Shown: one piece after another, positions 43,821-49,800 of the stretch | Layout of the letters: each line of letters opens with the position of its first letter | Position numbering within the stretch: the first letter of the stretch is position 1 | NCBI RefSeq assembly: GCF_041248615.1 | Contig: NZ_CP158426.1 | Length of the DNA: 64,000 nt | DNA from: Escherichia coli | GTDB lineage: Bacteria > Pseudomonadota > Gammaproteobacteria > Enterobacterales > Enterobacteriaceae | Direction: 5' to 3' (one strand) | Position numbers: made by a program

Positions 43821-46800
43821 TAACCTTTCTGCCATTCCATTACTCTGAGAGCTGCTGATTGCCGTTGTGCAGGGCTCCAGATCCAACTCTCTGGCGAACT
43901 GCCGTGTTTCATGCGCTCTATACGCTGAACCGTTATCTGTCAACCACCGGATGGACTGTTCCGGTACTTTATCGCCAAAGAGTTTTTCTATCGCTCCTAA
44001 CATCACATCCTGCACTGTCGCTTTATTGTAACCTCCCGTATTGGATGCCCAGTCGATAGCTTCACGATCGCAACAGTCCAGGGCGAACGTAACCCGGACT
44101 TTTTCGCCATCATCGCAACCGAACTCAAAGCCATCAGAACATCAACGCTGGTCGCTTTCCTTACCGATATTCGGCCTTTATGTTCCCGCTGCAGTCGTGA
44201 TAGTTTGTCATGTAACAACAGGATATTTTCGCTCATTATCCGGTAAACGCGCTTTGCATTCACTAACGGTAGTCCTTCATTTAGGGACTGCCGCCTGAGT
44301 ATCGCCCAGAACACGGCTTACCGGGGCTATTCCTTGTCCGAAGGTAACAAGGGCACATGCGCTATCCATTTTCGCGATTGCGCATACTCCACCACTTCTT
44401 TGAGGATCTAAACTTCCATGGTTTTTTACCCAGCAAGAGCTGTAACTCTTTTATTTGTTTTATAGCGGCAGGCAGTTCTGAGGCAGGAACGACACCCTCT
44501 CCTGAAGCAACAGCAGTGAGACTTCCTTCCAGAGATTGTTTTTCCACTTAAACAACAGGCAGGGCTGAATACAACGCAAACGCGCCACATGTGACACCGC
44601 CATGCCAGGCTCCATTGTCTGCTGAATAATGCCAATTTTTTCCTGAGGAGTTTTACGTTTACGAAGCTCCAGCCCCGGCAAAGTTCCAGTCATCTCAAAA
44701 TTAGAACCAGTGTCAGACATATATCCAAGCCTGTCTCTTATTTTAAGATACATCCACTATCTGGCGTTTCAAGGGGCTGGTCCAGCTACAAATATTATTG
44801 AAAGAGATTTTTATGAAAACGAAGCTTTTTACGATTTCTATCGGCATTGATGTAATATAGAAGAGTTATATAAATTATTCAAATCAAATTTTCTATTGAA
44901 GATTTTCATTCACAGAGTGAGAAAGATGTAAAATAAAAATACAGGCTCATATATTATTACTTAACCTTACATGGATATCCTGAAATGACATTAATTATTA
45001 AGATAATAACGTTTTCATCGGTAGTAGTAGAAATAAACAAAATTTTAATTTCAAAAACTGCTTGTTTCTCGTAGTGAGGTACTTGTCTTTACTGATTCGG
45101 GTAACAGGAAAACATTTAAAATCATTCTGTTGCGCTCTTTCTGAGAGGCTGATTGCAAAATGGCATCTGAATCGATCGCAGTTGTATGACTCAGCGAGTA
45201 AGGCCAGGGAGGTGTTACCCACGAAAATATGTACGGCCCAGAACGCGCTGGAACTCTTTTGATGCTCCAGCAAGAACTTAACCGAATGCCATTGGTACGC
45301 TGCCCCACAGAAAATTCCGTCACTAATGGCGGTAGCCGACAGATTCACATGGCGTTACCGCAGTAAACCAAGATGGATCTTGATTGCGTCCTCAACAGAC
45401 AACATATCTGCTTTGGACAACGAGCCAATATGTGTTTTGAGACAGGACTTATCCGCCGCCATAATCTGCTCTACAATCGCTTTGCTGCTCTGACACCTAC
45501 GGTCACAACAGCCTCACTTGGATACACTCGCTCTGTGTTACTGGTCAGAGGAACGACGACTACTCGAGCGAGGTTCCTGTTTGCTGCGTCATTGCTCACG
45601 ATCACTGCCGGACATGTCTTGCGGATTTCACTGTCAACAGCAGGATCAAATTCAATCCACCACGTCTCACCTGTGCCGTCACTGCTCTGTCATCTTTCTA
45701 ACACTTTACTGTCTAACACATGTAATAAAAAAGTTATTTTTCTGCAATTCGGGCATGATATTTAATCCCACGAGCATGAAACGTGTGAATTCGCTCATCA
45801 GGTACAACAAGCAAGAGAGATAAACGATGAAACCGTTACATTATACAGCTTCAGCACTGGTGCTCGGACTGACGTTAATGGGGAATGCACAGGCAGTGAC
45901 GACCATTCCGTTCTGGCACTCTATGGAAGGGGAACTGGGTAAAGAGGTGAATTCTCTGGTCCAACGTTTTAACGCCGAAAACCCGGATTACAAAATTATA
46001 CCGACTTATAAAGGCAACTACGAAGAGAGTTTAAGTGCGGGGATCGCAGCATTTCGTACCGGTAACGCTCCGGCTATTTTGCAGGTTTATGAAGTTGGCA
46101 CCGCCACCATGATGGCGTCGAAAGCCATTAAACCGGTGTATGACGTGTTTAAAGAGGCGGGGATTAACTTTGATGAGTCGCAGTTTGTGCCGACGGTTTC
46201 AGGCTACTACTCCGACAGTAAAACCGGACACTTACTCTCCCAGCCGTTCAACAGCTCGACTCCTGTTCTCTATTACAACAAAGATGCTTTCAAGAAAGCA
46301 GGATTAGACCCGGAACAGCCGCCGAAAACCTGGCAGGATCTGGCGGACTATGCCGCGAAACTGAAAGCCTCCGGTATGAAGTGCGGCTACGCCAGCGGCT
46401 GGCAGGGCTGGATCCAACTGGAAAACTTTAGCGCCTGGAACGGTCTGCCGTTTGCCAGCAAAAACAACGGCTTTGACGGCACAGATGCGGTGCTGGAGTT
46501 CAACAAGCCGGAGCAGGTGAAACACATCGCCATGCTCGAAGAGATGAACAAGAAAGGCGATTTCAGCTACGTCGGGCGTAAGGATGAATCCACCGAGAAG
46601 TTCTATAACGGTGATTGCGCAATGACGACTGCCTCTTCTGGTTCTCTTGCCAGCATTCGCGAGTACGCCAAATTCAACTACGGCGTAGGCATGATGCCTT
46701 ACGACGCTGACGCGAAAGATGCACCACAAAACGCCATTATCGGCGGAGCCAGCCTGTGGGTGATGCAGGGCAAAGATAAAGAAACGTATACCGGCGTGGC

Positions 46801-49800
46801 GAAGTTCCTCGACTTCCTCGCGAAGCCAGAAAATGCTGCCGAGTGGCACCAGAAAACCGGTTATCTGCCAATCACCAAAGCGGCGTATGACCTGACCCGT
46901 GAGCAGGGCTTTTACGAGAAAAACCCAGGGGCGGATATCGCGACACGTCAGATGCTGAACAAACCGTCGTTACCGTTCACCAAAGGACTACGTCTGGGCA
47001 ACATGCCGCAGATCAGAGCGATTGTGGATGAAGAGCTTGAGAGCGTGTGGACCGGTAAGAAGACGCCACAGCAGGCGCTGGATACCGCCGTTGAGCGTGG
47101 GAATCAGTTACTACGCCGCTTTGAGAAATCGACGAAGTCTTAACCAGTGTAATGTCGGATACGTTTCGCCTATCTGAGCTAACATCGCGTGTAGGCCGAT
47201 GTGATTGACATCTTCCTCCTTACGGCATCAACGTTCCAGACTGAGATGTACCCAGTTCCCTGGTGGAGAAGTCAGTCATGAATATTAATCGTATTGGTTT
47301 CGATCTTGCCGAAAAATGTTTTTCAAATCCACGGCGTTGATCACAATGAATAGTGGTACGGAGAAAAACGCTGAGCCCTCCCCACATGATGACGTTTTTC
47401 TCCGGGCTTTCTCCCTGCCTCATCAGCATCGAAGTCTGTGGCTCTTCCCATTCTGGGCACGGGAACTCATTCCGTATGGGGCCTACCGTGCGCATTATTC
47501 CGTAGAAACTTGTCAAATCTTATCTCAAAGGTAACAAAAACGACGCTAATAATGCAGCTGCCATCTGTGAGGCCGTCAGCAGGCCCGGCATGCGATTTGT
47601 TGTTTTCATATCGGAATCCCAGCAGACGTTACAGGAAGAATACCGGGTCCGGGCCAGAATCATCCGCGAGCGAACGGCGTTGCGTAATGAAATCCGGGGG
47701 CTGTTGAGTGAATTTGGTCTGCTGCTGCCTGTGGGGATAAGGCACGTGCGTAAAATCCAGCAGGGAATACTGCCCAGGGGCAGTGGAATGACCCTTCATC
47801 CGTTTGTTGTGCGAACTGTCAGAGTAAAATGAACTCATATCGTCTCATGACCACCGTCTTCATGAGGCTGCAAGGGATGATATCCGTATTAAACAGCTGA
47901 TGGAGCTAAAAGGAGTTGGTCCCACAACAGCCTGTGCGCTGGTTGCCTGTATCGGTAATGCACATGATTTTAAAAAGGGACGGCAACTGGCAGCCTGGCT
48001 GGGCTGACGCTATCACAATACAGCAGCGGCTGAATGTCGAAGCTGGGCAGGATAACAAAAGCCGGTGATTCGTATCTGCGAATGCTTCTGGTTCAGGGGG
48101 CTCGTTCAGTACTGATTGGTGCTGAGAAAAGGACTGACTCATTCAGTCGTTGGGTCTGTTCACTGGTTGAACGCAGAGAATACTGACGCGCTGTTGTGGC
48201 CATCGCCGCCAGAAAGGTAAGGCTGTGCTGGGCATCATGTCATTACGGTGATGATTTCAGGCTGTATTCAGCCAGCTAAAGCACGCAGCAACCGTATGAC
48301 TATCTGATCTGCAACTCGTTGATGATAAAGTGTTAGACCCTGTGAGGTATATCTGATTATTGTACAGGATATACGTATCCGCTTAACGAACAAGAGCCTC
48401 ACGCGCGTCTTTCATCTGGGCCGAATAGATGAGATTCATCATGGTTGTTTATAGTACCGTCGTCTCTCCCCTTTATTTTTACAGAAAAGCAAACAGAAAC
48501 CATAAATACCGGCGTTGACATGGCGGGGAAGCCGGCAACGGCTATCCCTACCGTAATCATAATATTTCTGTCATTTCTGCTCCCTACAATGACGTTAGTT
48601 TTACTTCTGGGCGATAACAACGAAAGGAGAGTATGACATGCACAACTCCAAAATCCGGCTGGCTATACTGGTTGGCTGCATGGCTCTGAGCGCCAACCTG
48701 TGGGCCAAAGCGCAGCCGGTGCAGGCAACGCTGGCCGGGCATGCAATTCTGCCGGCAAAATCCGCTGTTTCAACACCGAAGGATGCGCCGGGCGATTTGC
48801 AACAGAGCGGCAAATACACCAGCGGCAAACGCGTCACCGAGCTGGGCAGCGTGGCGGGCAAATCCGCAGAACGCCTGACAGGACTCAGCCTGCCGATCAA
48901 TGGTCAGCCGTTGCAGGGCCACTCAGGTATCAAACACATGCCCGACGGTACCTATTGGGTGCTGACTGACAATGGCTTCGGCAGCAAAGCCAACTCCCCG
49001 GACGCCATGCTGTACCTCAACCAATACAAGATAGATTTCAAAGACGGCTCGGTAGTACCGCTGAAGACGCTGTTCCTGCATGATCCGGATAAAAAGGTGC
49101 CGTTCCACATCATCAACGAGAGCACCGAACTACGCTATCTGACCGGCAGCGATTTTGATCCGGAAAGCTTCCAGTTTTCCGACGATGCCTTATGGATCGG
49201 TGATGAGTTCGGTCCTTACCTGATCAAGACCGACCTGAACGGCAAGGTGCTGGCGGTGTTCGACACAGAAGTGGACGGTAAGGTGGTTAAATCGCCGGAC
49301 AACCCGACGCTGACTCTACCTAGCGCTCCGGACGGTAAGCTGAACTTCCAGGTGGCGCGTTCCAAAGGCTTTGAAGGCATGGCCATCTCGCCGGACGGCA
49401 GTAAGCTGTATCCGCTGCTGGAAGGGGCATTGTGGGACGGTGAGCAGTTCGAGAACGTTGACGGAAAACGCTACCTGCGTGTGCTGGAGTTCGATGCCAA
49501 ACAGCAGGCCTGGACTGGTCGCAGCTGGCAGTACGTGCTGGAAGACAACCAGAACGCCATCGGCGACTTCAATATGATAGATGATACCCACGGACTGGTG
49601 ATCGAGCGTGATAACGGCGAAGGCACGGCGGATAAAGCCTGCGTCGCCGGCGCGCCGACCAACAACTGCTTCAGTCAAGTAGCCAGGTTCAAACGGGTGT
49701 ATAAAATTGCTTTCTCGGACACTAACGTCGGAAAACCTGTCGAAAAACTGGGCTATATTGACCTGATGAAGATTCAGGATCCGAACAAGCTGGCACGCAA

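Follow-up and report, generated by a model that had tools for sequence, protein, structure and literature searches.

A complete, foreign second copy of ugpB, the gene for the periplasmic sn-glycerol-3-phosphate and glycerophosphodiester binding protein, was found as cargo of a tRNA-integrated genomic island in Escherichia coli. The window, meaning the whole stretch of DNA analysed, comprises 64,000 nucleotides (nt) of assembly GCF_041248615.1 (contig NZ_CP158426.1), and the gene lies on its plus strand at positions 45827-47143. Together with a Pho-regulated promoter and half of the ugpB-ugpA spacer, the complete ugpB makes up a 1.53-kb segment of a foreign ugp operon, and the resident ugpBAECQ operon of the same chromosome is intact. 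The identity and the history of the locus are held with very high confidence. The fuller explanation, in which this foreign second copy functions through the resident UgpAEC translocator, is probable, and judged from the features of the sequence the chances are about even that the island gene is both expressed and useful.

The window is identical to positions 32001-96000 of the chromosome of E. coli NRZ14408 (NZ_LT599825.1; 100% identity, 0 mismatches over 64 kb). In this chromosome the native locus, with the order livF-(tetratricopeptide repeat (TPR) gene)-ugpB-ugpA-ugpE-ugpC-ugpQ-yhhA-ggt, was found intact at 403290-408323 of the record, and its ugpB is 325 kb away from the island copy at 77827. 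The initial annotation had offered two explanations for the gene, either a second, island-borne copy or an operon split by an insertion sequence (IS) with loss of glycerol-3-phosphate uptake, and the search of the whole genome decided for the former, since the native locus is intact in the same genome. That the island gene could be the sole ugpB, detached from ugpAECQ with glycerol-3-phosphate uptake impaired, is suggested by nothing but the local picture of an IS after ugpB in place of ugpA, and it has next to no probability given that the native gene differs from the island copy at 69 of 1,317 nt and that ugpB and ugpAECQ are contiguous in 5,421 of 5,426 complete E. coli genomes. The description of the gene as detached and remote was correct, while the distance of about 250 kb, which had been reckoned to the position of ugp in K-12, is refined by the 325 kb found in NRZ14408. 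A chimeric join in the assembly, at 45.7 kb or at 47.2 kb, was also considered in the initial annotation and was not borne out. It has nothing in its favour beyond the repeats (IS and repetitive extragenic palindrome, REP) at the junctions and is extremely improbable, since the identical 2.6-kb arrangement of a mazF fragment, ugpB and the IS occurs at 99% identity or more in 205 of the 5,426 complete genomes (3.8%), determined in many laboratories. Each of these 205 genomes has at least two ugpB places per record. Five independent metagenome contigs matched an island-specific 26-mer, and all of them have the island arrangement and are collinear over 3.8-10.6 kb with both junctions included. 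At the native locus of NRZ14408 the TPR-protein gene is inserted between livF and ugpB (locus L006, 4185-4931), and the ugpB-ugpA spacer (L006, 6608-6782) is 175 bp long as against 97 bp in K-12. Over its full length the native ugp region of this strain is approximately 96-97% identical to that of most E. coli, and an identity of 99% or more is reached with just 35 genomes.

In a BLAST comparison with the K-12 ugp locus a single block at 45666-47198 was obtained with 93.3% identity, reaching from 157 bp before the ATG to 55 bp after the stop codon. The ugp homology previously placed at 45660-47280 is thereby upheld within narrower limits. On the right, the block ends in a remnant of the ugpB-ugpA spacer (47144-47198, plus strand) made up of one degenerate REP and, in inverted orientation, the first half of another, and ending in ...GTGTAGGCCG. 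The alignment with the K-12 spacer stops exactly after GTGTAGGCCG, where K-12 goes on with GATAAGCGAAGCGCATCCGGC, the rest of the REP, and then ugpA; the same end point was obtained against Escherichia albertii and Pseudocitrobacter. On the left, the block is abutted by a fragment of a mazF/pemK-like toxin gene on the minus strand (45471-45656), which lacks about 14 N-terminal residues at the junction. This fragment is annotated as a PemK/MazF family toxin by the Prokaryotic Genome Annotation Pipeline (PGAP), and its score against the NCBIfam MazF model NF007386 (23.9 bits, profile positions 15-69 of 111) is far under the cut-off of 120. The left flank, 44700-45665, occurs in E. coli only beside the island type of ugpB, and no independent context for it was found in the E. 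coli genomes searched.

The encoded protein is 438 amino acids (aa) long, the same length as UgpB of K-12 (b3453), and is annotated as UgpB by PGAP. With the NCBIfam UgpB equivalog NF008211, which has a curated cut-off of 411 bits, it reaches a score of 932.6 bits over profile positions 4-439 of 439, and it aligns end to end with 4AQ4, the solved structure of E. coli UgpB. As read from the sequence, the signal peptide is intact with the AQA cleavage motif retained, and its hydrophobic core has two conservative changes, A12V and A16T. A full-length UgpB with a signal peptide, as first annotated, is thus encoded, and the Shine-Dalgarno region and start codon agree with those of the native gene. 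The island copy is 94.8% identical to the native ugpB of NRZ14408 and of K-12 at the nt level and 96.8-97.3% at the aa level, with 14 of 438 aa differing from the native protein of NRZ14408. The residues Y42, E66, S121, W169, W172 and R374 (mature numbering) are all unchanged; Y42, S121, W172 and R374 we take to be ligand-contact residues, and R374 is, going by the work on 4AQ4, presumably the conserved ligand-contacting arginine of UgpB. The numbering is fixed by a study in which E66 and W169 are named as ligand residues and in which the conserved ligand-contacting arginine is given without a position number (10.1101/529602). Ten aa changes are specific to the island lineage, among them V398A, which lies beside R374 (mature numbering). 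Most of the island-specific substitutions are at variable positions or return to the residue of the enterobacterial majority, and two of them, A45V and P381S (precursor numbering), are at sites that are invariant in 82 other UgpBs of the Enterobacterales. The open reading frame (ORF) was without lesion in all six island copies that were read, and the island protein of strain BEN2908 (WP_072668195.1) is identical to that of the window. No genes for an ATP-binding cassette (ABC) permease or ATPase are near the island ugpB, which is followed by the IS pseudogene and does not form an operon with ugpA, ugpE and ugpC.

The regulatory region of ugp was carried along at 45666-45826 (plus strand), with a Pho-box array at 45676-45737, the 5′ untranslated region, the native Shine-Dalgarno sequence and a putative −10 element, TATTTT, near 45735. 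The Pho-box-like repeats begin at 45676, 45687, 45709 and 45720 in an 11-bp phase and match 13, 14, 12 and 13 of 18 consensus positions. The homologous array of the native K-12 gene scores 14, 12, 13, 12 and 12, and the Pho boxes of the promoter recognised earlier thus score as well as those of K-12. On both strands of the 64-kb window (128 kb) there are only 25 sites scoring at least 13 of 18. No sigma-70 consensus promoter was found upstream of ugpB in the window, as is expected for a PhoB-dependent promoter, and a scan for the second, carbon-starvation promoter of ugp, with its CRP site, gave only core matches of 8 out of 10 positions, which in K-12 as in the island overlap the Pho boxes. 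Upstream homology begins at 45666-45677 whether the comparison is made with K-12, native NRZ14408, E. albertii or Klebsiella, showing that the whole conserved regulatory block was taken along, and the identity of the promoter block to E. coli is 82-83%.

These promoter identities, together with those of the gene, argue for an origin outside E. coli but within Escherichia. Over 5,424 E. coli genomes promoter identity is bimodal, with 194 genomes at 99% or more, 5,230 at 80-90% and none between, so the island ugpB is not an E. coli allele. The gene itself has 94.8% nt identity to K-12 and native NRZ14408, 94.3% to a locus titled E. coli (L008) and 94.0% to E. albertii, to be compared with 97.3% between two E. 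coli alleles, 94.6% between K-12 and E. albertii and 82-85% for outgroups. These values place the copy within the Escherichia radiation, as distant from E. coli as E. albertii is, and it is most simply seen as a xenolog from an Escherichia-level donor. Both this foreign nature, at about 5% nt divergence, and the position of the IS exactly within the REP of the ugpB-ugpA spacer are points that the initial annotation missed. One genome from each of 100,044 species was scanned, and the Escherichia matches listed comprised one E. coli-titled and one E. albertii locus, both at about 94%; loci of E. fergusonii, E. marmotae and E. ruysiae are not among the matches listed, and any of these could be the donor.

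The element that follows ugpB at 47199-48533 (plus strand) is a full-length, dead insertion sequence of the IS110/IS1111 family. Its assignment to IS110 and the absence of ugpA from this position agree with the first description, which had taken the element for a remnant; it is dead without being truncated. The transposase pseudogene (47278-48279) is annotated by PGAP as a frameshifted IS110 family transposase with internal stops. With an intact plasmid relative as tblastn query, aa 1-340 of the 340-aa transposase were covered, with at least five in-frame stops and changes of frame. The non-coding parts, 79 bp on the 5′ side and 254 bp on the 3′ side of the transposase gene, correspond to the IS1111-type layout, in which a long non-coding region lies 3′ of tnp (PMC11187229). 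The right end, ...CGGGGAAGCC at 48533, was set by where the homology to intact plasmid copies ends. The element is a mosaic, its 3′ 640 bp (47896-48533) being 91% identical to plasmid copies of the IS and its 5′ half only 36% at the aa level. It starts inside the REP of the spacer, so that the left flank is the REP half GTGTAGGCCG. On the right, the adjoining DNA, GGCAACGGCTATCCC..., is not the missing half of the REP and lies upstream of a PF13449 gene; the two flanks do not jointly form a target site. No terminal inverted repeats were found in the IS, and no bridge or seeker RNA family was matched in it by Rfam.

IS110/IS1111-type elements insert site-specifically, some of them into REPs, and without target duplication (PMC11187229). 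The element resembles the REP-targeting members IS621 of E. coli, ISPa11 and ISPpu9 in the homology of its DEDD-type transposase, the insertion inside a REP, the lack of a visible target duplication and the long non-coding region 3′ of tnp. It differs from them in being dead and mosaic, with a REP on the left flank only and an unrelated right flank. Within the 3′ non-coding region the differences from the plasmid relative lie mainly in short patches, and one of these patches, at 48413-48431, is a small hairpin, CATCT-GGGCCGAAT-AGATG, with a loop that resembles the REP target AGGCCGGAT. This hairpin may be the remnant of a guide segment of a seeker or bridge RNA.

The part of the island inside the window extends from 38300 to the end of the window at 64000, starting just past setC (36992-38176) and leading on to an integrase gene and tRNA-Sec. 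CP4-like genes (cbtA/yeeU, antirestriction, JAB domain) begin at 38.6 kb. There are no tRNA genes inside the 64-kb window; the integrase and tRNA-Sec are beyond its end, at 120003-121581 of NZ_LT599825.1. The order in NRZ14408, setC, island, integrase, tRNA-Sec and yicJ, is that of a tRNA-integrated island, and ugpB, lying between setC and the integrase with tRNA-Sec, is inside the selC-side island as first described. In BEN2908 the same ugpB module adjoins tRNA-Leu (leuX) and an integrase, between ahr and nanC/fim. The two positions, selC in NRZ14408 and leuX in BEN2908, show that the island backbone carrying the module makes use of two or more tRNA sites. In the plasmid collection no ugpB of the island type was found, and the literature yielded nothing relevant on a second copy of ugpB, on ugpB at selC or in BEN2908, or on the WP accessions.

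Two described islands were considered for the identity of this one. AGI-3, the selC island of BEN2908, carries the fos locus (PMC3325963) and was suggested by the 100% identity of the region in that strain; it was ruled out because the BEN2908 module is located at tRNA-Leu instead of selC. About 100 kb of BEN2908 sequence also showed no fos genes. The tkt1 island, between metE and ysgA, is a different island (PMC3349570).

The coding sequence of the island copy was compared with its relatives for traces of selection. For the island branch the count was 10 nonsynonymous and 18 synonymous changes, corresponding to a ratio of nonsynonymous to synonymous rates (dN/dS, omega) of about 0.16, which is far below the neutral expectation (binomial p = 2e-6). 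Four other Escherichia branches taken together have 10 nonsynonymous and 69 synonymous changes, an omega of about 0.04, so that the island branch is about four times higher (Fisher p = 0.011). In the adjacent 1-kb IS gene at least five stops as well as frameshifts have accumulated, and there are none in the 1.3 kb of ugpB. The pattern fits a long period of purifying selection followed by a relaxed phase, and does not amount to a proof of present function.

The history proposed for the locus starts in a donor at the Escherichia level, about 5% from E. coli, in which a REP-targeting IS would have entered the ugpB-ugpA spacer. Recombination with another, related copy of the IS, invoked on account of the mosaic structure of the element, or an adjacent deletion would then have exchanged ugpAECQ for island or plasmid DNA, and the IS would have decayed afterwards. 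Under phosphate limitation the island gene would be expressed in dependence on PhoB and its product exported by the Sec pathway via the signal peptide. The protein would bind glycerol-3-phosphate and glycerophosphodiesters and, as the island ugpB is without a permease of its own, hand them to the resident UgpAEC translocator. The outcome would be a higher dose of binding protein and possibly an additional bile-responsive chaperone capacity. UgpB is known to bind glycerol-3-phosphate and glycerophosphocholine, is strongly induced and is the most abundant periplasmic protein in pst mutants (PMC8144458); in its ligand-free form it serves in the periplasm as a chaperone that responds to bile (Lee et al. 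2020, as reviewed in PMC8144458). The orphan copy, which belongs to the same family at 97% identity, could take on such a transporter-independent role.

UgpB of K-12 is the binding protein of UgpB-AEC2, a PhoB-regulated ABC importer of glycerol-3-phosphate and glycerophosphodiesters. Compared directly, the K-12 protein and the island protein share their length of 438 aa, 97% aa identity, the cleavage motif and the ligand residues, and their genes share a homologous Pho-box promoter, 5′ untranslated region and Shine-Dalgarno sequence. The island gene is unlike that of K-12 in being unlinked to ugpAECQ and located in a mobile island, in its nt divergence of about 5% and ten lineage-specific substitutions, and in a promoter block that is only 82-83% identical. 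The use of one ABC translocator by two binding proteins has well-known counterparts in HisJ and ArgT (LAO), which share HisQMP, and in LivJ and LivK, which share LivHMGF. In these systems, as proposed for the island UgpB, one membrane complex is served by two separately encoded binding proteins. These pairs differ from the island case in being old paralogues with different specificities that are fixed in the chromosome, whereas the island UgpB is a near-identical xenolog on an accessory island.

Several points weigh against a foreign copy that functions through resident UgpAEC. No donor or intermediate alleles were found in the 5,426 E. coli genomes or in metagenomes, and none of the 80 loci listed as matches in the species scan is a donor, so that the origin from another Escherichia lineage rests on distances only. 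The island copies are at least 99% identical to each other, and their intact ORFs consequently tell little about recent selection. The raised omega and the substitutions A45V and P381S fit relaxed constraint. Because the DNA to the right of the IS does not complete the REP, the proposed succession of an insertion and a recombination is a model. Some of these same points would be accounted for if the gene were an inert passenger, a recently stranded fragment without a role that is intact only for lack of time to decay. The absence of partner permease or ATPase genes nearby, the surroundings of pseudogenes (mazF fragment, DDE transposase pseudogene and dead IS), the roughly fourfold rise in omega over the orthologues with two substitutions at otherwise invariant sites, and the near identity of all known copies are in line with such a passenger. 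It is nevertheless judged clearly less probable than a functioning copy, being possible but disfavoured, as an omega of 0.16 is far under 1, an IS gene of similar size has gathered its stops and frameshifts after arrival while ugpB has none, the promoter, Shine-Dalgarno sequence, signal peptide and ligand residues are without lesion, and the module has been maintained in 3.8% of the complete genomes, at two different tRNA sites.

A new role for the protein is improbable, be it a shifted specificity, an accessory scavenging of organophosphates together with the adjacent phytase-like esterase (and PhoX in some islands) or a stand-alone chaperone function. Such a role could draw on the ten lineage-specific aa changes, including V398A by R374 and two at otherwise invariant sites, on the phosphorus-related neighbours (the PF13449 esterase and, in BEN2908, the PhoX family gene of its island), on the apparent spread of the esterase gene itself by IS1 onto plasmids and on the documented chaperone activity of UgpB. 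All known ligand-contact residues are unchanged, however, at 97% identity overall, and the esterase is joined to ugpB only via the IS and is found without ugpB on plasmids. No convincing Pho box was found before the esterase gene (about 11 of 18 in a hand count), and PhoX is absent from the NRZ14408 island. It is also unlikely that the stranded ugpB was kept for being useful alone, as an additional binding protein or chaperone under PhoB induction with the slight alterations A45V, P381S and V398A. Within that proposal it is likewise a slim prospect that the protein helps poultry-associated and extraintestinal E. coli to scavenge host glycerophosphodiesters via resident UgpAEC or to tolerate bile, and the neighbouring secreted esterase might act jointly with it. 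The foreign second copy working through resident UgpAEC is accordingly preferred over both the passenger and the new role.

The island gene duplicates a well-characterised one as a xenolog of 97% identity, and over 200 RefSeq genomes already have it annotated as ugpB. Its detachment from ugpAECQ is explained by ordinary IS biology. The main consequence is one of correct annotation, with little beyond: strains with the island are not to be scored as ugp-disrupted, and the island gene is not to be confused with the ugpB of the operon in pangenome or metabolic-pathway calls. The locus is also a tidy example of gene capture, in which a REP-targeting element of the IS110/IS1111 type can cut a binding-protein gene with its promoter from an operon and turn it into island cargo. 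Should the orphan copy be expressed, it would offer a natural instance of a resident ABC translocator working with a xenologous binding protein, and it would be a candidate for a fitness factor of avian and extraintestinal strains of E. coli.

The gene joined to the right end of the IS (48638-49981, plus strand) encodes a secreted product with the Pfam domain PF13449, 'esterase-like activity of phytase' (E = 6e-61), and belongs to no ugp locus. The right part of the IS together with this gene (47722-49981) recurs with 100% identity on plasmids that lack ugpB, from both E. coli and E. fergusonii. The plasmids with the PF13449 gene are IncHI1B and others, and in one of them, NZ_CP104510.1 (locus L094, 5248-9075), the gene is flanked by two copies of IS1A. 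This unit looks like a composite transposon that is now spreading the gene. The leuX island of BEN2908 has genes for a PhoX-family phosphatase and a phosphoethanolamine transferase (locus L093, 4025-6004; locus L096, 28267-29803), a loose phosphorus-related theme; PhoX is not present in the NRZ14408 selC island.

Two inverted copies of ISEc31 flank a segment of about 61 kb of the island that includes ugpB (42516-43729 with 43770-44693 in the window; NZ_LT599825.1 105018-106358, locus L003 26019-27359). A DDE-transposase pseudogene among the neighbours of ugpB is contiguous over 1,044 bp in APEC O2-211 and BEN2908 and split in NRZ14408, with 924 bp beside one ISEc31 and 117 bp beside the other. 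The split pseudogene indicates that the ugpB segment is inverted in NRZ14408 relative to APEC O2-211 and BEN2908, presumably by recombination between the two ISEc31 copies. The sole Rfam match in the window, isrC (RF01387; 150 bits, full length) at 43575-43697 on the minus strand, is within the 5′ part of ISEc31, an element of the IS3 family, and owing to this position it is most likely an IS-associated sequence rather than a free-standing small RNA gene.

The setC-proximal end of the island (38970-42506) carries a CP4-like toxin-antitoxin set with cbtA/yeeU, DUF4942, an antirestriction gene and a JAB/RadC-like gene. Outside the island, a RelE/ParE toxin with a helix-turn-helix antitoxin forms a pair between yicN and nepI (13910-14570). 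From nepI to yicS (16188-34331) there is an accessory islet absent from K-12, which encodes a 3,709-aa inverse autotransporter (iatC), the HilA-like regulator eilA, and IpaD/SipD-, YopB/SseC- and SycD-like type III translocon and chaperone proteins.

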